A stretch of DNA of 64,000 nt from Escherichia coli (GTDB taxonomy: Bacteria; Pseudomonadota; Gammaproteobacteria; Enterobacterales; Enterobacteriaceae). The translations under genes were made by a program, and so were the position numbers. The first letter of the stretch is position 1. Each line of letters starts with the position of its first letter. The stretch is taken from the NCBI RefSeq assembly GCF_048403405.1, contig NZ_CP183129.1. The stretch is one strand, 5' to 3'. This document shows positions 2,044-40,792 of the stretch, in pieces. The notes under the pieces are model-generated. The model was not told the DNA's origin and searched no databases. It saw nothing but the letters and a program-made list of their open reading frames with translations.

Positions 2044-2761
2044 AATAAATATCCTCCGGCATAGCCGGAGGTTTTTCAAATGCGCCTATAAGGCTCTCTT
2101 ACCAGCCGCGCCCTAACAGGCGCACACGATCTGACATTTGCATCCAACTTCGTTACTTACGGCCCGTAAACGGGCTGCCCGGATAGGGAATCGATAACTG
2201 CTCTCCCATTTTATCCTCTTCAAGCTGGTGCTTTATGTAATCCTGTATCTTCGCCGTGTTCTTACCCACCGTATCGACGTAGTACCCTCTGCACCAGAAC
2301 TCCCTGTTCCTGTATTTGAATTTCAAATCACCAAACTGCTCGTAAAGCATCAGACTGCTTTTCCCTTTCAGATATCCCATAAAGCCGGATACGCTCATTT
2401 TGGGCGGGATCTCCACAAGCATATGGATATGATCTGCACAGCATTCAGCTTCCAGAATCCGTACACTTTTCCACTCACACAGCTTTCTCAAAATACTGCC
2501 TATTGCTCTACGCTTCTCTCTGTAGAACACCTGTCTTCGGTATTTTGGCGCAAAAACTATGTGATATTTACAGTTCCATCGGGTGTGCGCTAAGCTCTTT
2601 TCGTTCCCCATTGGGACCCCCTTTTGATTTCTTGTTTGACACTTGCAGTTGCCAGACCGCAAGGTGTTTTAACAAATCAAAAGGGGTTTTAATAACTGGC
2701 TTAAAGCTGAAAGCTTTCCGGAACCCCCAGCCTAGCTGGGGGTTTTCTGTGCACAAAAAAG
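2044..2761 (-). mobile_element. IS200-family insertion sequence, copy 1 (about 718 bp, no terminal inverted repeats)
   Basis: Segment is identical to 37105..37822; encodes a Y1 HuH transposase; imperfect palindromes near both ends (cctccggcatagccggagg and cccccagcctagctggggg). Confidence 0.9.
2153..2611 (-). CDS. tnpA: IS200/IS605-family Y1 (HuH) transposase TnpA
   Basis: Translation MGNEKSLAHTRWNCKYHIVFAPKYRRQVF...; HuH motif (HIHML) and C-terminal tyrosine; start taken at the internal Met of the 169 aa ORF-track entry to give about 152 aa. Confidence 0.9.
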   Translation of the reverse strand: MGNEKSLAHTRWNCKYHIVFAPKYRRQVFYREKRRAIGSILRKLCEWKSVRILEAECCADHIHMLVEIPPKMSVSGFMGYLKGKSSLMLYEQFGDLKFKYRNREFWCRGYYVDTVGKNTAKIQDYIKHQLEEDKMGEQLSIPYPGSPFTGRK

Positions 2762-19737: not shown

Positions 19738-19822
<85 letters not shown>

Positions 19823-19856
19823 TCTCAAGCATTACCTCAAAATTTGAATTACCCTT

Positions 19857-19941
<85 letters not shown>

Positions 19942-20160
19942 TCACTTTCAAAAGTCCCTGAACTCTCAAACGAATCCGTAATTAAATATTCTGCCCAAGC
20001 GGGGAAGGATGAGAAGCTTCGACCAAGGTTCGACTCGAGCGCCAGCGAGAGAGCGTTGCCGCAGGCAACGACCCGAAGGGCGAAGCGCGCAGCGCTGAGT
20101 AATCCTTCCCCCACCACCATCACTTCCTGTAAATACTCAAAACCTGTTACTCCGAGCTAA
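19942..20160 (+). ncRNA. rtT: rtT-like tRNA-operon distal repeat region (contains tpr)
   Basis: Contains a second copy of the tRNA 3'-end-like motif aatccttcccccaccaccatcac (about 20100..20122) and repeated attctgcccaa; extent approximate. Confidence 0.45.
20009..20098 (+). CDS. tpr: protamine-like small basic protein
   Basis: 29-codon [32 protein letters not shown] inside the rtT repeat; arginine-rich. Confidence 0.5.
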
Positions 20161-33506: not shown

Positions 33507-34202
33507 TCAGGCGAATCCCGGCCGTAACACACCATCCGGATAATTCTCCGCCAGCAGTTTTTTTACCGATACCAGCAAATCATTCAGCCCATCGTCCTGC
33601 ATTCCCAGTTTGATAAGCTCCTGTTCCAGTGAAAACAGGTATTGTGCGTTGGTTCCCAGTGGACCGCTCGCCGCTGCAATCAACGGCGCGATGACCTGAG
33701 CGCGAGTGTCAGATTCATATTCTGGATGTCGCGGGTCCATAATAAACACAATGGCGTTTACTGTGCGTCCATCATCAAGATCAAGCTGACACCAGGTTGG
33801 CAGATAACAGCCGGTAATCATCTCGCGCTTCCACAACAGGGTTAGTTCCTGCTCCAGCGTCTCTTCTGGCAGTCGATAGGCGACGCCTGTGGTGCGTCCG
33901 CCCTCTTTCAGTGCAAGCATCCGTCCCGGCTGGTGCGCAGTCCCACGCCCGGCGGTCAGGCGCAGGCAAAACGCGCGATGCCATCCAACCAGTGTACCGG
34001 TGCACGACTCGGTAAACTCCAGTGCCGGATTCCACATCAACGATCCATAACCGAAGATCCACACCGGTCCCTCATCAGGTCGACAAGCCAGCGTCGCCGC
34101 CAGCGAAGCCGCCCGTTGCTCTGCTGACCATAAGAGTGATTCTTCAATGGCACCAAATGCCGTTTTACAATCGGCATTCATCAAGAAATCACGCGTTATC
34201 AC
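33507..34202 (-). CDS. chaC: gamma-glutamylcyclotransferase ChaC
   Basis: GTG start giving (M)ITRDFLMNADCK..., 231 aa; the ORF-track entry is 12 codons longer; YGSLMW motif. Confidence 0.85.
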   Translation of the reverse strand: MITRDFLMNADCKTAFGAIEESLLWSAEQRAASLAATLACRPDEGPVWIFGYGSLMWNPALEFTESCTGTLVGWHRAFCLRLTAGRGTAHQPGRMLALKEGGRTTGVAYRLPEETLEQELTLLWKREMITGCYLPTWCQLDLDDGRTVNAIVFIMDPRHPEYESDTRAQVIAPLIAAASGPLGTNAQYLFSLEQELIKLGMQDDGLNDLLVSVKKLLAENYPDGVLRPGFA

Positions 34203-34359
34203 CTTACACCTCCGCCACTGCATACTTCCCTGCGACAACTTTTTGGTGTCTTCCGGACATTTTTACTGCTCATTTTGAAACCACTAACGGGACAATATGC
34301 AATCCACGGACCACTTGCAAGGCAACACCGCACGAATAGCTTTAACTAAGCTACCGGTT

Positions 34360-34590
34360 TTACGATTTTTTATGCCATTTATCATCATCCCCTTTGGCAT
34401 ATTCATGCTTCACAGCAGCCCAGGCCACTTTATGCGAGGTTTCTTCGCGACTGGCGTCATCACGCCGATCTTCTTTATCTTTATATTGCTCCCATGCGCT
34501 GTTAAACGCTTCTTTATAGATATCCTGAGCATGAGACGGTAGCACGTGCTTTACGCTTTCCGGCAGATCGCTTTTCGTTTTATACGGCAT
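34360..34590 (-). CDS. chaB: cation transport regulator ChaB
   Basis: 76 aa MPYKTKSDLPESVKHVLPSHAQDIYKEAFNSAW... Confidence 0.9.
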   Translation of the reverse strand: MPYKTKSDLPESVKHVLPSHAQDIYKEAFNSAWEQYKDKEDRRDDASREETSHKVAWAAVKHEYAKGDDDKWHKKS

Positions 34591-34859
34591 CGTTGACTCC
34601 TTTTACAAAGTTGAACATTAAGTGTGGTCAACAATATCCACTCTTGCCAAAACATAAGAATTTTCATGTCAGACTCTTCTTAAGAAACGCTAAAACAAAC
34701 ATTGTCTAAACGCATTGCTTATTTTTATGGCCCGATGAGTAAAAAATCGACAGCGGGGTAAAAATTCGTAAAATGTTACCGATATCCAGACACTTTCTGT
34801 TATTTTTCCTACCTATTTTTTACATTTTCGATAAATTCATCTGCAAAGGGATAACCATA

Positions 34860-35960
34860 ATGTCAAATGCTCAAGAGGCGGTAAAAACCCGCCACAAGGA
34901 GACTTCGCTTATTTTCCCGGTTCTGGCGCTGGTAGTGCTGTTCCTGTGGGGAAGCAGCCAGACACTACCAGTGGTCATTGGCATCAATCTTCTTGCTCTT
35001 ATTGGTATTTTAAGTAGCGCCTTTAGTGTTGTCCGTCATGCGGACGTATTAGCCCATCGCCTGGGAGAACCTTACGGTTCGCTTATTCTTAGCCTTTCAG
35101 TGGTTATTCTTGAAGTCAGTTTGATTTCAGCTTTAATGGCAACCGGCGACGCCGCGCCAACGCTAATGCGTGATACGCTCTATTCAATCATTATGATTGT
35201 TACCGGTGGGCTGGTTGGCTTTTCATTATTGTTGGGCGGACGCAAGTTTGCCACCCAATATATGAATCTGTTTGGTATCAAGCAGTATTTAATTGCGTTG
35301 TTCCCCCTGGCGATAATCGTACTGGTATTTCCAATGGCTCTGCCTGCGGCGAATTTTTCAACCGGTCAGGCGTTACTGGTAGCATTAATTTCTGCGGCAA
35401 TGTATGGCGTATTTTTGCTGATCCAGACCAAAACGCATCAAAGTTTATTTGTCTACGAGCACGAAGATGACAGTGATGATGACGACCCGCACCACGGTAA
35501 ACCGTCTGCCCATAGCAGCCTTTGGCATGCTATCTGGTTGATTGTCCATCTGATTGCCGTTATTGCAGTCACCAAAATGAACGCCAGCCCGCTGGAGACA
35601 TTGCTCGACAGCATGAATGCCCCTGTCGCCTTTACTGGCTTCCTGGTGGCTCTGTTGATTCTGTCGCCGGAAGGTTTAGGTGCGTTAAAAGCAGTGTTGA
35701 ACAACCAGGTCCAGCGCGCGATGAATCTGTTCTTTGGTTCAGTGTTAGCAACCATTTCGCTTACCGTACCTGTCGTCACGCTAATTGCCTTTATGACGGG
35801 TAACGAATTGCAGTTTGCACTTGGTGCGCCAGAAATGGTAGTGATGGTGGCCTCTTTAGTGCTGTGCCATATCTCCTTCTCCACCGGACGTACTAACGTG
35901 CTCAATGGCGCAGCGCATCTGGCACTGTTTGCCGCCTATTTGATGACGATATTTGCCTGA
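34860..35960 (+). CDS. chaA: Ca2+/H+ (Na+/H+) antiporter
   Basis: Start at MSNAQEAVKTRHKE (366 aa) inside the 395 aa ORF-track entry; CaCA-family multi-TM protein. Confidence 0.93.
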   Translation: MSNAQEAVKTRHKETSLIFPVLALVVLFLWGSSQTLPVVIGINLLALIGILSSAFSVVRHADVLAHRLGEPYGSLILSLSVVILEVSLISALMATGDAAPTLMRDTLYSIIMIVTGGLVGFSLLLGGRKFATQYMNLFGIKQYLIALFPLAIIVLVFPMALPAANFSTGQALLVALISAAMYGVFLLIQTKTHQSLFVYEHEDDSDDDDPHHGKPSAHSSLWHAIWLIVHLIAVIAVTKMNASPLETLLDSMNAPVAFTGFLVALLILSPEGLGALKAVLNNQVQRAMNLFFGSVLATISLTVPVVTLIAFMTGNELQFALGAPEMVVMVASLVLCHISFSTGRTNVLNGAAHLALFAAYLMTIFA

Positions 35961-36249
35961 CAGTTATATCTCCTCCGATGACAGAAATCGGGGGAGATAA
36001 TATAAATTCCTGCTTATTGTATTTCTTCATACTACCTGAACAGGTTGTTAATCAGAATTGCGAGCCTGTACCAGAACCTGCACGAAACCACTGCAACAGC
36101 TGTTGAAAAGCCGGAATGTACTCTTTATTGCAAACATTTCAGGGATGAAGTGAAGATGAATTGAGACGTAGTATCCACACCAAGCCGGCGTTATCCGGTG
36201 AGGCGCAATGTTGCGGGGGCTTTATCCCTGGTGGCATTGGTTGCTGGAA

Positions 36250-36317
36250 AGAGAAAACCCCCGCACGTTGAGAGGTAAAACCTGACAACAGAACGGGGGC
36301 TAATCTTGAACCATCAA
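36250..36317 (-). ncRNA. rdl: predicted Rdl antisense RNA, copy A (coordinates approximate)
   Basis: Minus-strand promoter ttgtaa-N17-tattct (-10 at 36325..36330), stem cccccg/cggggg plus T-rich tract about 67 nt downstream; antisense to the ldr leader. Confidence 0.4.
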
Positions 36318-36365
36318 CAATTCAAGAATAGCCGCAAAATGTTGTCATTACAACAAGGCGGCTAT

Positions 36366-36473
36366 ATGACGCTCGCGCAGTTTGCCATGATTTTCTGGCA
36401 CGACCTGGCAGCACCGATCCTGGCGGGAATTATTACCGCAGCGATTGTCAGCTGGTGGCGTAACCGGAAGTAA
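36366..36473 (+). CDS. ldr: Ldr type I toxin (35 aa membrane peptide)
   Basis: MTLAQFAMIFWHDLAAPILAGIITAAIVSWWRNRK; followed by hairpin ggccgcaggtgtaacagcctgcggcc plus TTTTTT (36523..36554). Confidence 0.9.
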   Translation: MTLAQFAMIFWHDLAAPILAGIITAAIVSWWRNRK

Positions 36474-36784
36474 GGTGAAAACGGGCGTCAGGCTGCCGTG
36501 ATGGCAATATGCGCCCGAAACCGGCCGCAGGTGTAACAGCCTGCGGCCTTTTTTGTCTTTATCTCTTCCACAAGTAAATATTGGCAACCCGAGCTGGAAG
36601 CATCATCCAGAGCACTCATGAAACGACTGTAACAGCTGTTGAAAAACCGGAATGCACTCTTCATTGCATACATTTCAGGGATGAAGTGAAGATGAATTGA
36701 GTCGTAGTATCCACACCAAGCCGGCGTTATCCGGTGAGGCGCAATGTTGCGGGGGCTCTATCCCTGGTGGCATTGGTTGCTGGA

Positions 36785-36852
36785 AAGAGAAAACCCCCGC
36801 ACGTTGAGAGGTATAACCTGACAACAGAACGGGGGCTAATCTTGAACCAGAA
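36785..36852 (-). ncRNA. rdl: predicted Rdl antisense RNA, copy B (coordinates approximate)
   Basis: Same promoter and terminator-like elements as copy A, shifted by 535 bp. Confidence 0.4.
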
Positions 36853-36900
36853 CAATTCAAGAATAGCCGCAAAATGTTGTCATTACAACAAGGCGGCTAT

Positions 36901-37008
36901 ATGACGCTCACGCAGTTTGCCATGACTTTCTGGCACGACCTGGCAGCACCGATCCTGGCGGGAATTATTACCGCAGCGATTGTCAGCTGGTGGCGTAACC
37001 GGAAGTAA
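36901..37008 (+). CDS. ldr: Ldr type I toxin (35 aa), second copy
   Basis: MTLTQFAMTFWHDLAAPILAGIITAAIVSWWRNRK (two substitutions relative to copy A); terminator hairpin 37058..37089. Confidence 0.9.
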   Translation: MTLTQFAMTFWHDLAAPILAGIITAAIVSWWRNRK

Positions 37009-37104
37009 GGTGAAAACGGGCGTCAGGCTGCCGTGATGGCAATATGCGCCCGAAACCGGCCGCAGGAGTAACAGCCTGCGGCCTTTTTTGTATCCGGCCC
37101 CATG

Positions 37105-37822
37105 AATAAATATCCTCCGGCATAGCCGGAGGTTTTTCAAATGCGCCTATAAGGCTCTCTTACCAGCCGCGCCCTAACAGGCGCACACGATCTGACATTT
37201 GCATCCAACTTCGTTACTTACGGCCCGTAAACGGGCTGCCCGGATAGGGAATCGATAACTGCTCTCCCATTTTATCCTCTTCAAGCTGGTGCTTTATGTA
37301 ATCCTGTATCTTCGCCGTGTTCTTACCCACCGTATCGACGTAGTACCCTCTGCACCAGAACTCCCTGTTCCTGTATTTGAATTTCAAATCACCAAACTGC
37401 TCGTAAAGCATCAGACTGCTTTTCCCTTTCAGATATCCCATAAAGCCGGATACGCTCATTTTGGGCGGGATCTCCACAAGCATATGGATATGATCTGCAC
37501 AGCATTCAGCTTCCAGAATCCGTACACTTTTCCACTCACACAGCTTTCTCAAAATACTGCCTATTGCTCTACGCTTCTCTCTGTAGAACACCTGTCTTCG
37601 GTATTTTGGCGCAAAAACTATGTGATATTTACAGTTCCATCGGGTGTGCGCTAAGCTCTTTTCGTTCCCCATTGGGACCCCCTTTTGATTTCTTGTTTGA
37701 CACTTGCAGTTGCCAGACCGCAAGGTGTTTTAACAAATCAAAAGGGGTTTTAATAACTGGCTTAAAGCTGAAAGCTTTCCGGAACCCCCAGCCTAGCTGG
37801 GGGTTTTCTGTGCACAAAAAAG
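37105..37822 (-). mobile_element. IS200-family insertion sequence, copy 2
   Basis: Identical to 2044..2761 over the full length; flanks differ (ldr terminator on one side, kdsA terminator on the other). Confidence 0.9.
37214..37672 (-). CDS. tnpA: IS200/IS605-family Y1 (HuH) transposase TnpA
   Basis: Same protein as 2153..2611. Confidence 0.9.
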   Translation of the reverse strand: MGNEKSLAHTRWNCKYHIVFAPKYRRQVFYREKRRAIGSILRKLCEWKSVRILEAECCADHIHMLVEIPPKMSVSGFMGYLKGKSSLMLYEQFGDLKFKYRNREFWCRGYYVDTVGKNTAKIQDYIKHQLEEDKMGEQLSIPYPGSPFTGRK

Positions 37823-37847
37823 CCTTAACGCAGAACGCTAAGGCTTT
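37822..37847 (-). terminator. kdsA intrinsic terminator
   Basis: Minus strand hairpin gccttagcgttctgcgttaaggc then T-run; the T-run lies at the IS200 boundary. Confidence 0.55.
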
Positions 37848-37866
37848 AGTTTTCAAGCAAAAAAGT

Positions 37867-38730
<864 letters not shown>

Positions 38731-38756
38731 TTAATCTTGAGTAAAATGTCGATTAA

Positions 38757-39566
38757 TTAATGCAGCACAATATGTTTATGCGCGATGTTATTTATTTGCG
38801 CACGGATCATTTCGCTGATCGGGTCTTCCGGACACTGTTCAACGAAATAACTTAAATCGTTCAACGCAACGTGTTCGCAATCCAGTTGCGCATAAATCAA
38901 CCCGCGATCGCGAATTTCATAGGGATCTTCCGGGTTGAATTGTAATAAAGCTTCGCTGGTGCGTAACGCCAGCTCCATCTGATTTTCTTCCATCAACGAA
39001 GCTTTGAGTGTATCCAGCAATTTGCGGATTACCTCAATGTTATCAGCTTCATCAAGGTCTTCATAAAACAGTTCCGCCGACGGGCTGATATTTCCCTTTA
39101 ACCATACATCCAGCATATGTTCGCTTAACGATTCACCGTTAAAAGGATTAATCAGCCAAATTTCGCCATCCGGACATTCAATGCGCAATATCAGCTGCGT
39201 CGGGAAAATCACCGGCAATAGCGGCAAATCGAGACGATTCGCGACCCATAATAAAACGGCACCTAATGATACCGCACTGCCCTGTCGATTCTTTAACACC
39301 TGGTCCAGCCATAATGCATCGGAAAGGCGATAAACGCCGCGTGAGGCTTTAAATCCCCAGTCGCCGTAAAACAGCGCGATCAGTTTTTCCAACTGCTCTT
39401 CTAAAGGCAGAAGCTGGCTGATTTCTTCCTTCGCCAGACTAACGAGACGCTCCAGTTCGTCGTAAACATCTTGCGAGGGAAAATCGCGGCGGATTGCTTC
39501 GCAAGCCAGGATCATGCCTTCGCACAATGGCGCTTTATTAAATTCGAAATCAGCTAACGATCTCAT
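38757..39566 (-). CDS. ychA: transglutaminase-like/TPR protein YchA (SirB1)
   Basis: 269 aa, synteny between kdsA and ychQ. Confidence 0.85.
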   Translation of the reverse strand: MRSLADFEFNKAPLCEGMILACEAIRRDFPSQDVYDELERLVSLAKEEISQLLPLEEQLEKLIALFYGDWGFKASRGVYRLSDALWLDQVLKNRQGSAVSLGAVLLWVANRLDLPLLPVIFPTQLILRIECPDGEIWLINPFNGESLSEHMLDVWLKGNISPSAELFYEDLDEADNIEVIRKLLDTLKASLMEENQMELALRTSEALLQFNPEDPYEIRDRGLIYAQLDCEHVALNDLSYFVEQCPEDPISEMIRAQINNIAHKHIVLH

Positions 39567-39569
39567 GAC

Positions 39570-39962
39570 TTACCCCAGTAACGGTACTTTTGTGGTGGCG
39601 AGTTTAATGATGATGTACAGCACCACCAACGCCAGCGGGAAGGCAATAATGCGCGCCTGCTGACTGTGCATACGACGATAATCGAATGCAATAAAACCCA
39701 AAACGATATAAATGATAACTCCAAACAGCTTTTCAGTCAGCCACTGTGCCTGCCCGGAAAATGGCAGGATGTGCGCTTTAGCCATCAACGCAATGCCGCT
39801 TAACAATAACACCGTATCGACAACCGGCGGCACAATGCGCGTCCAACGAGCAAATGCCTGTGGATGCTTCTGATAACGTAGCCAGAAACGTAAGGTTAAT
39901 AGCCCTACAGAAAGCGCAATGCTAATGAGATGAACGCTAAGCAGTGTAGAAAAACTTGTCAT
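39570..39962 (-). CDS. ychQ: small inner membrane protein YchQ (SirB2)
   Basis: 130 aa, four TM helices. Confidence 0.85.
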   Translation of the reverse strand: MTSFSTLLSVHLISIALSVGLLTLRFWLRYQKHPQAFARWTRIVPPVVDTVLLLSGIALMAKAHILPFSGQAQWLTEKLFGVIIYIVLGFIAFDYRRMHSQQARIIAFPLALVVLYIIIKLATTKVPLLG

Positions 39963-40792
39963 TGATAATAGCGGCCGAGCGTTACGCGCTCGTTATCACC
40001 ATAGTCCCGACAGGTTTCGACGTCATGATATCCCGCGTGGATAAATGCCTGTCGCACCGCTTCGCCCTGCTGCCAACCATGTTCCAGAAGCAGAAAGCCG
40101 CCGGATACCAGCGCGTTACGCGACTGTTCGATGATATGCACAATGTCTGCCATTCCACTGTCTGCCGCAACCAGCGCAGTGAGCGGCTCAAAGCGAACAT
40201 CGCCTTGTTGAAGATGTGGGTCCTGCTCGTCAATATACGGCGGATTACTGACAATCATCGCAAACTGCTGCCCGGCTAGCGCGCTAAACCAGTCGCTTTG
40301 CAGAATATGGATGTTTTTGATCGCCAGATTCTGGGCATTACGTTGCGCCAGGGCGACAGCATCGGGCATACGATCTACAGCGGTAATTTCGCAGTCCGGG
40401 CGCTCGCTAGCCAGCGCCAGCGCAATCGCCCCGGTACCCGTCCCGAGATCGAGAATACGGCAAGGTTGTTCAGGCAACCGCGCCAGTGCCTGCTCCACCA
40501 GACACTCCGTATCCGGGCGCGGAATTAAGGTCGCTGGCGAAACAAATAACGGCAACGACCAGAATTCTCGCACCCCGGTTAAATGAGCAATGGGTTCACC
40601 ATCGCGACGACGTGTCAGTAGCGCATCAAGTTGCTGACATTGTTCGTCAGTCAGCTGCGTTTCACCAAAGGCGAGAATAAAAGTACGCCCTCTGCCGGTA
40701 ACATGCTCCAGCAGGATTTCAGCATCACGCCGCGGGCTTTCGCTCGCCTGAAGTTGGCTTATTGCTTCACGTAACCAGTGTTGATATTCCAT
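39959..40792 (-). CDS. prmC: release factor glutamine N5-methyltransferase
   Basis: 277 aa, SAM-binding DLGTGTGAIA and NPPY catalytic motif. Confidence 0.95.
   Translation of the reverse strand: MEYQHWLREAISQLQASESPRRDAEILLEHVTGRGRTFILAFGETQLTDEQCQQLDALLTRRRDGEPIAHLTGVREFWSLPLFVSPATLIPRPDTECLVEQALARLPEQPCRILDLGTGTGAIALALASERPDCEITAVDRMPDAVALAQRNAQNLAIKNIHILQSDWFSALAGQQFAMIVSNPPYIDEQDPHLQQGDVRFEPLTALVAADSGMADIVHIIEQSRNALVSGGFLLLEHGWQQGEAVRQAFIHAGYHDVETCRDYGDNERVTLGRYYQ

Follow-up and report, generated by a model that had tools for sequence, protein, structure and literature searches.

Positions 36084-37091 of the window, i.e. the whole stretch of 64,000 nucleotides of Escherichia coli DNA that was analysed, are occupied by two tandem Ldr/Rdl type I toxin-antitoxin modules at the canonical chaA-kdsA site of this species, an identification that we regard as nearly certain. 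Each module lies inside a long direct repeat (LDR) of about 530 bp and the array has chaA and kdsA on its flanks, as is characteristic of Ldr/Rdl loci. The toxin ORFs, the antisense RNAs, the terminators, their arrangement and the orthology of the two units to LDR-C and LDR-A of strain K-12 are established at the sequence level. The features are listed in Table 1.

Table 1. Features of the two-unit Ldr/Rdl locus and of its immediate neighbourhood
Feature	Position in the window	Strand	Basis
LDR unit 1, repeated core, 473 nt	36084..36556	+	Repeat finder and gapped alignment
rdl antisense RNA (antitoxin) of unit 1, 66 nt	36252..36317	-	Rfam RF01813 rdlD
ldr ORF of unit 1, 35 aa plus stop, MTLAQFAMIFWHDLAAPILAGIITAAIVSWWRNRK	36366..36473	+	Pfam, RefSeq, identity with K-12
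Intrinsic terminator of the unit-1 ldr mRNA	36523..36554	+	10-bp GC-rich stem, then T6
Inter-unit spacer	36557..36619	+	Alignments; not repeated upstream of unit 1
LDR unit 2, repeated core, 472 nt	36620..37091	+	Repeat finder and gapped alignment
rdl antisense RNA (antitoxin) of unit 2, 66 nt	36788..36853	-	Rfam RF01813 rdlD
ldr ORF of unit 2, 35 aa plus stop, MTLTQFAMTFWHDLAAPILAGIITAAIVSWWRNRK	36901..37008	+	Pfam, RefSeq, PDB
Intrinsic terminator of the unit-2 ldr mRNA	37058..37089	+	9-bp stem, then T6
IS200C insertion	~37105..37815 (boundaries good to a few nt)	-	NCBIfam, RefSeq, K-12 spacer comparison

Repeat architecture and the IS200C neighbour

A repeat finder was run over positions 34000-40000, and the boundaries of the repeated cores were taken from gapped pairwise alignment. 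Direct repeats with a start-to-start distance of 535/536 nt were detected between 36014-36313 and 36550-36849 (87% identity) and, for the 3' part, between 36316-36556 and 36851-37091 (99%). The initial annotation had described units of about 473 bp with a periodicity of 535 bp and outer boundaries at 36084 and 37091, and these values proved to be accurate. The two cores differ at 14 of 473 alignment columns (13 substitutions and one 1-nt indel), corresponding to 97.0% identity. This likeness ends abruptly upstream of 36084 and 36620, where the 23 columns next to the core contain 10 differences, since unit 1 has the chaA flank on this side and unit 2 the inter-unit spacer. This spacer is the counterpart of those that precede LDR-B and LDR-A in K-12. 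Eight of the 14 core differences precede the rdl-complementary stretch, in the region of the promoter and 5' leader. Three are located within rdl, where the antisense RNA of unit 2 departs from that of unit 1 by one apical-loop base (36814 versus 36278) and at two 5'-tail positions (the indel at 36314, and 36315). The two differences within the CDS are both nonsynonymous, and the last one lies in the terminator loop (36532).

Compared with the ldrA-kdsA spacer of K-12, the corresponding region of the window carries an IS200C element between unit 2 and kdsA. It begins about 15 nt beyond the T-run of the unit-2 terminator, and the LDR is left intact. Its tnpA gene, at the equivalent of 37214-37672 on the minus strand, matches NCBIfam NF033573 (transpos_IS200, E 2.6e-43) and is named 'IS200C family transposase' in RefSeq. 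The insertion splits the K-12 spacer at 37110/37816, and collinearity is retained on either side of it. We also considered, and rejected, that IS200 had mediated the loss or disruption of a third unit, as the insertion is located downstream of the terminator, in the ldrA-kdsA spacer, with flanks collinear with K-12. Two-unit loci without IS200 are found in O157:H7, 873.10 and KBN10P04869. An Rfam match to STnc490 lies inside the element (37682-37805), and a second, 100% identical copy of IS200C is present at positions 2044-2761 of the window. Neither the insertion beside unit 2 nor the coordinates of the rdl genes were part of the initial annotation.

Toxin ORFs, antisense RNAs and terminators

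Both peptides match the Pfam family PF13940 (Ldr_toxin) over positions 1-35 of 35, with 85.9 bits (E 1.8e-24) for unit 1 and 87.1 bits (E 7.7e-25) for unit 2. This profile describes peptides of about 35 aa with a hydrophobic transmembrane helix, the FWHDLAAP motif and a basic C-terminus. Their sole relative of solved structure is LdrD (PDB 5LBJ; E 3.7e-10, residues 1-35). In RefSeq both ORFs carry the label "type I toxin-antitoxin system toxin Ldr family protein", the accessions in strain 4621 being WP_000170955.1 for the ORF of unit 1 and WP_000176713.1 for that of unit 2. An NCBIfam HMM scan of the two 35-aa peptides returned no family, and the peptides are therefore assigned on the basis of Pfam, PDB and the RefSeq naming; the NCBIfam library apparently lacks a usable model for peptides of this kind. 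From unit 1 to unit 2, the substitution A4T corresponds to GCG to ACG at 36375/36910, and I9T to ATT to ACT at 36391/36926.

The 66-nt antisense RNAs fit the Rfam model RF01813 over positions 1-66 of 66, with 83.6 bits in unit 1 and 87.0 bits in unit 2 (gathering score 50), and no further rdlD match to RF01813 was found in the whole 64-kb window. Both rdl are fully complementary to a stretch of the ldr 5' UTR that lies 49-114 nt ahead of the start codon (ATG at 36366 and 36901). They are thus encoded in cis on the opposite strand and overlap the 5' UTR while staying clear of the ribosome binding site and start codon, which is the arrangement of a type I system. Each Rdl is predicted to fold into a long, GC-rich stem-loop that leads into a U-run, with -27.3 kcal/mol (z -4.5) for unit 1 and -26.7 kcal/mol (z -5.3) for unit 2, and the stem-loop and U-run of unit 1 scored as terminator-like. 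The ldr mRNA terminators consist of hairpins at 36523-36548 and 37058-37083 with 9-10 pairs, 8 of them G-C, followed by TTTTTT; their predicted folds reach -24.9 kcal/mol (z -3.9) in unit 1 and -22.7 kcal/mol (z -3.7) in unit 2. Shuffled controls fold much less well than either the terminators or the Rdl stem-loops.

These results agree with what had initially been proposed from the DNA itself. The two 35-aa ORFs with their quoted sequences and the A4T and I9T differences are borne out by the ORF list and its translation. The proposed relationship to the Ldr family is confirmed by Pfam over all 35 positions of both peptides, and that to the rdlD RNA model by Rfam over all 66 positions in both units. 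A terminator of its own had also been attributed to each unit, and a GC-rich hairpin with T6 indeed ends each copy. The RefSeq/PGAP records of this locus annotate the ldr ORFs and leave the rdl antisense RNAs without annotation; the K-12 record has both. Because only the ldr ORFs are annotated by RefSeq/PGAP, the rdl genes at 36252-36317 and 36788-36853 are easily overlooked.

Origin, distribution and integrity of the two units

Orthology was assessed from aligned 535-nt frames of the window units and those of K-12 MG1655. Unit 1 is the orthologue of the chaA-proximal LDR-C (96.6% identity), with the chaA-side flank common to both, and unit 2 is the orthologue of the kdsA-proximal LDR-A (98.3% identity), with the kdsA-side flank in common. 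Over the same frames, units 1 and 2 are 91.6% identical to each other. Because each unit has its best match in a different K-12 unit, at an identity above that between the two units, the LDR duplication is old and predates the split of these strains. The initial annotation had spoken of diverging paralogues. That the units differ stands; the description is to be refined in that they are orthologues of two different K-12 units, LDR-C and LDR-A.

In a megablast search of positions 35900-37900 against 5,426 complete E. coli genomes, all 2001 bases were found with 100% identity in many chromosomes, and 259 genomes had at least 80% of this 2-kb query in one place. The gene order in the 100%-identical RefSeq chromosomes is chaA, two Ldr family toxin genes, IS200C tnpA and kdsA. 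Strains 4621 and MS 69-1 are examples of carriers of this locus. When a single unit was used as query, LDR units were present in 5,425 of the 5,426 complete genomes, at 1 to 12 places per genome (median 4), which amounts to some 23,000 units in total. The chaA-kdsA locus contained 1, 2 or 3 units in eight sampled strains: one in NC101, two in O157:H7 TT12B, 873.10 and KBN10P04869, and three in 2014C-3051 and 789. As the sampled lineages carry 1-3 units and the genomes 1-12 places, the two-unit array represents ordinary copy-number variation. The locus described here is real and was read correctly, and it is previously known and annotated in public genomes: RefSeq already contains this exact sequence, together with the A4T/I9T peptide WP_000176713.1, for hundreds of E. 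coli genomes. Its significance beyond correct annotation is small; Ldr/Rdl has been a textbook chromosomal type I family since 2002.

One of the two units might be a decaying, non-functional relic, the likeliest candidates being unit 2 with its A4T and I9T substitutions, or unit 1 with its leader indel. The inter-unit CDS differences (36375 and 36391) are all nonsynonymous, and most CDS polymorphisms among 18 A/B/C-type LDR units sampled from eight strains alter the peptide, which is compatible with relaxed constraint. Within this sample A4T is private to unit 2 of the window, and residue A4 falls in the N-terminal segment, which is reported to be important for the toxicity of LdrA (PMC8309996). 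In unit 1, the 1-nt insertion at 36314 removes a short leader ORF that ends at the ATGA overlap. However, both ORFs are intact with 35 aa and score equally in Pfam, both rdl are full-length and above the gathering threshold with intact stems, and both terminators are intact. I9T occurs in 7 of the 18 sampled units, K-12 LdrB among them, and S29G in 13 of the 18. Moreover, the unit-2 allele is kept at 99% identity or more in about 440 records (single-unit query). We consider decay of either unit to be unlikely.

It is even harder to believe that the second unit is an artefact of assembly or repeat collapse, i.e. a false tandem duplication of a single LDR. Mis-assembly is a well-known risk with near-identical tandem repeats of about 0.5 kb, and over their 3' 241 nt the two units share 99% identity. 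But the 14 unit-to-unit differences include a 1-nt indel and two codon changes, each unit has a separate best K-12 orthologue, and other lineages have 1, 2 or 3 units at chaA-kdsA. In addition, the 100%-identical two-unit layout recurs in many independent complete assemblies, mostly of the long-read era. The initial annotation had argued against an assembly duplication, and the 14 differences together with the 100%-identical 2001-bp stretch in many independent complete genomes show that it was right.

That the repeats would constitute a Hok-type locus of the hok/sok family has virtually no probability: sub-threshold Rfam 'sok' matches on the plus strand (36215-36368, 27.0 bits; 36751-36903, 30.1 bits), the predicted pairing of the 3' UTR with the start region, which resembles the hok fbi element, and the comparison of Ldr/Rdl regulation with hok/sok in reviews (PMC4147584, PMC8167048) point in this direction, but the sok matches attain half of the gathering score of 59 and lie on the sense strand, Pfam gives only Ldr_toxin and the antisense RNA fits rdlD over its full length, so that membership is refuted by the Rfam and Pfam results and the likeness is one of regulatory logic, not of family.

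Predicted regulation and comparison with known systems

For the two Ldr/Rdl modules, a consensus sigma-70 scan of 35950-37250 found no site at threshold (1.1 expected by chance), and both promoters were for this reason deduced from weaker hexamers and from conservation with ldrD. A -10-like TAGTAT is present at 36169-36174 and 36705-36710 (TAGAAT in ldrD), and ldr transcription would start at about 36181 and 36717, 7 nt after this conserved hexamer. The putative rdl promoter, on the minus strand just upstream of the rdl 5' end, consists of TTGTAA and TATTCT separated by 17 nt. Each unit would then produce a stable, highly structured plus-strand mRNA that extends for about 370 nt to the intrinsic terminator of that unit and encodes Ldr, predicted to be a 35-aa single-pass inner-membrane peptide. 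From the literature on K-12 LdrA and LdrD, overproduced Ldr would lead to the collapse of ATP synthesis and membrane integrity and to growth arrest. The 66-nt Rdl transcribed from the minus strand would pair with the ldr leader and thereby hold off translation of the toxin.

Overproduction of LdrD kills E. coli, and co-expression of RdlD relieves this effect (PMC4147584). LdrA is an alpha-helical inner-membrane peptide, upon production of which ATP falls within 2 min and growth stops; the primary phenotypes differ, with nucleoid condensation for LdrD and a drop in ATP for LdrA, and the mechanism by which LdrA is regulated by its antitoxin 'remains to be deciphered' (PMC8309996). LdrA has also been described as a pore-forming toxin that is subject to translational repression by rdlA and to specific neutralisation by YajC (PMC12643268). 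The exact way in which Rdl would block translation at the present locus is something that we infer, and the A4T/I9T variant encoded by unit 2 is presumed to be toxic.

The predicted 373-374-nt mRNAs fold with z-scores of -6.2 and -6.4 versus shuffles. In these folds, the region that begins with the upstream hairpin and takes in the Shine-Dalgarno sequence and the ATG pairs with the 3' UTR, in the segment between the stop codon and the terminator, at 36479-36516 in unit 1. When ldrD is compared with the A/B/C units, this 3' UTR segment is among the stretches that are best conserved, although the encoded peptides are only about 57% identical. Because the start region is predicted to pair with a 3' UTR segment that is strongly conserved with ldrD, the folding model suggests a hok-like fold-back that would keep the full-length ldr mRNA translationally inert.

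Coupling of toxin translation to a leader ORF (ldrX), which would start within the antisense target and have a stop codon overlapping that of the toxin start, was proposed by Gerdes & Wagner 2007 as a hypothesis that 'needs further work' (PMC4147584; restated in PMC8167048). The candidate ldrX frames are the single feature in which units 1 and 2 differ structurally. A GTG leader ORF at 36198 (VRRNVAGALSLVALVAGKRKPPHVER) has 26 aa in unit 1 and stops at TAA 36276-36278, the same stop being found in K-12 LDR-B. In K-12 LDR-C it is frameshifted. In unit 2, with TAT, and in K-12 LDR-A, with TAC, this ORF extends to 56 codons, and its TGA stop overlaps the ATG of ldr (ATGA). In K-12 ldrD the leader frame and the toxin ORF form an in-frame fusion. 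A shorter candidate of 20 aa, with a TTG start inside the Rdl target and its end at ATGA, is present in K-12 LDR-B and LDR-C. In unit 1, the frame that ends at ATGA lacks a canonical start because of the 1-nt insertion at 36314, and the TTG is instead in frame with ldr. Among the units compared, no single leader frame is kept across the LDR family. This argues against a conserved leader peptide; translational coupling is not thereby disproved. The non-conserved ldrX frame, along with the 1-3 units per site and 1-12 per genome, could serve as comparative data on the mechanism of Rdl repression.

It is quite improbable that the few differences between units 1 and 2 are functional and not neutral. 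The loop base, A at 36278 versus T at 36814 (C in K-12 rdlA), could tune cognate recognition between Rdl and ldr, by analogy with the Sib/Ibs paralogues for which cognate recognition of this kind has been shown. The same base also creates or abolishes the stop codon of the GTG leader ORF, and it could in this way switch a unit between coupled and uncoupled leader translation. If true, a loop-base effect of either kind would result in tandem copies with different toxin-release thresholds. The lineage-specific A4T substitution, in the N-terminal (periplasmic) segment, may alter toxicity.

The closest known system is the K-12 array LDR-A/B/C described by Kawano et al. 2002, Mol Microbiol 45:333 (as cited in PMC4147584). 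It occupies the same chaA-kdsA site with the same orientation (chaA, units, kdsA), unit length and period of about 535 nt, the order in the K-12 record being kdsA-ldrA/rdlA-ldrB/rdlB-ldrC/rdlC-chaA. The internal layout of the K-12 units is also found here, with the ldr ORF, rdl about 48 nt upstream of its ATG, a terminator and an equal spacing from CDS to rdl. K-12 has three units versus two in the window, where an LDR-B-like middle unit is missing (or, equivalently, was gained by K-12). The peptide of unit 1 is identical to that of K-12 LdrA/LdrC. For unit 2, A4T is absent from K-12, and the I9T residue is the state found in LdrB.

The K-12 LDR-D (ldrD-rdlD) sits elsewhere in the chromosome, between bcsG and yhjV, and has about 72% nucleotide identity over the unit. 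It matches the same Pfam and Rfam models, the peptides align over 35 of 35 residues, and its leader/Rdl region and 3' UTR are highly conserved with the window units. The ldrD-rdlD pair is the experimentally characterised founding member of the family, and PDB 5LBJ is an NMR structure. The hok/sok system of plasmid R1, with mok, has no sequence-family relationship to Ldr/Rdl, the peptide of the latter being an Ldr_toxin. The proposed logic is nevertheless alike, with a long structured 5' UTR and an antisense RNA that targets the leader and not the RBS of the toxin. In this comparison mok would correspond to the proposed ldrX, a leader ORF with toxin-coupled translation, which for ldr is a hypothesis, and the predicted folding of the 3' end back to the ldr translation start would likewise be hok/sok-like.

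Genomic layout and public annotation

Among 5,426 complete genomes of E. coli, 259 share the arrangement of two LDR repeat units followed by an IS200C element; the arrangement is therefore a lineage marker. The rdl antitoxin genes, each specifying a 66-nt RNA antisense to the ldr leader region, are systematically unannotated in non-K-12 genomes. In the window, the two rdl genes lie at 36252-36317 and 36788-36853. PGAP-annotated E. coli RefSeq records that match these positions (e.g. NZ_CP103479.1) list both Ldr toxin CDSs without rdl ncRNA features; by contrast, rdlA, rdlB and rdlC are annotated in the curated K-12 record.

It is also observed that the window contains two IS200C copies, 100% identical to each other. 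Elsewhere in the window, a tRNA/RtT cluster (19738-20119, + strand) presumably corresponds to the tyrT-tyrV-tpr/RtT arrangement that the K-12 map places near this chromosomal region.

Coordinates of leader ORFs, IS200C copies and structured RNA matches in the window
Feature	Position	Strand	Remarks
GTG leader ORF, unit 1	36198-36278	+	26 aa; stop TAA at 36276-36278
GTG leader ORF, unit 2	36734-36904	+	56 aa; TAT in place of the unit-1 TAA
IS200C	37105-37815	-	in the ldr-kdsA spacer, directly past the unit-2 terminator
IS200C, second copy	2044-2761		100% identical to the 37105-37815 copy
STnc490 (Rfam)	37682-37805	-	full-length, 146 bits; over tnpA 5' region of IS200C
STnc490 (Rfam)	2621-2744	-	full-length, 146 bits; over tnpA 5' region of second IS200C
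tRNA gene 1	19738-19819	+	Rfam tRNA, 53.4 bits
tRNA gene 2	19857-19938	+	identical to gene 1; Rfam tRNA, 53.4 bits
RtT RNA element	19988-20119	+	RF00391, 137 bits; after both tRNA genes

Variation in the toxin, the leader ORF and the Rdl loop

Within the 108-nt ldr CDS (36366-36473 in unit 1), nearly all nucleotide polymorphisms among the 18 sampled A/B/C-type units are nonsynonymous, giving the variants A4T, M8V, I9T, P17S, L19P, S29G and R32C; a single polymorphism (36410) is clearly synonymous. This near-absence of silent changes suggests that the Ldr toxin is under relaxed or diversifying selection, although dN/dS would need a larger sample than these 18 units.

The GTG leader frame in the ldr 5' UTR was compared in six units, i.e. 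the two of the window and K-12 LDR-A to LDR-D. Depending on the unit it is truncated, frameshifted, coupled to ldr or fused to it, so that, judged from sequence, the 'ldrX' leader ORF proposed in the literature is not conserved as a frame across these units. In unit 2 its terminal TGA overlaps the ldr ATG (ATGA). The base that makes or abolishes the leader stop codon (36278 / 36814) also occupies the middle of the apical loop of Rdl. With rdl on the - strand, this base shows three states among the 18 sampled units (+ strand: A, T or C), and it could have an effect on the specificity of Rdl-ldr kissing between paralogues.

Candidate alternative ldr starts and predicted mRNA folding

All A/B/C-type units carry an in-frame ATG 27 nt 5' of the annotated ldr start (36339-36341 and 36874-36876, + strand), from which a 44-aa form beginning MLSLQQGGY-MTLAQF would result; in unit 1, a TTG at 36306 lengthens the frame to 55 aa. 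The Shine-Dalgarno sequence AAGGCGG is better placed for the annotated 35-aa start than for the upstream ATG, and the Pfam model spans the 35 aa only, not the upstream extension.

In the predicted ldr mRNA fold, 36339-36372, i.e. the upstream hairpin through the Shine-Dalgarno sequence and the ATG, pairs with 36479-36516, a 3' UTR stretch between stop codon and terminator, and the equivalent segments pair in unit 2. Whole-mRNA fold z-scores are -6.2 and -6.4 for the two ldr mRNAs. The 3' UTR partner is strongly conserved between the A/B/C-type units and ldrD, the K-12 LDR-D toxin gene at a separate locus. The predicted pairing of the start region with the 3' UTR would resemble the fold-back inhibition of hok.
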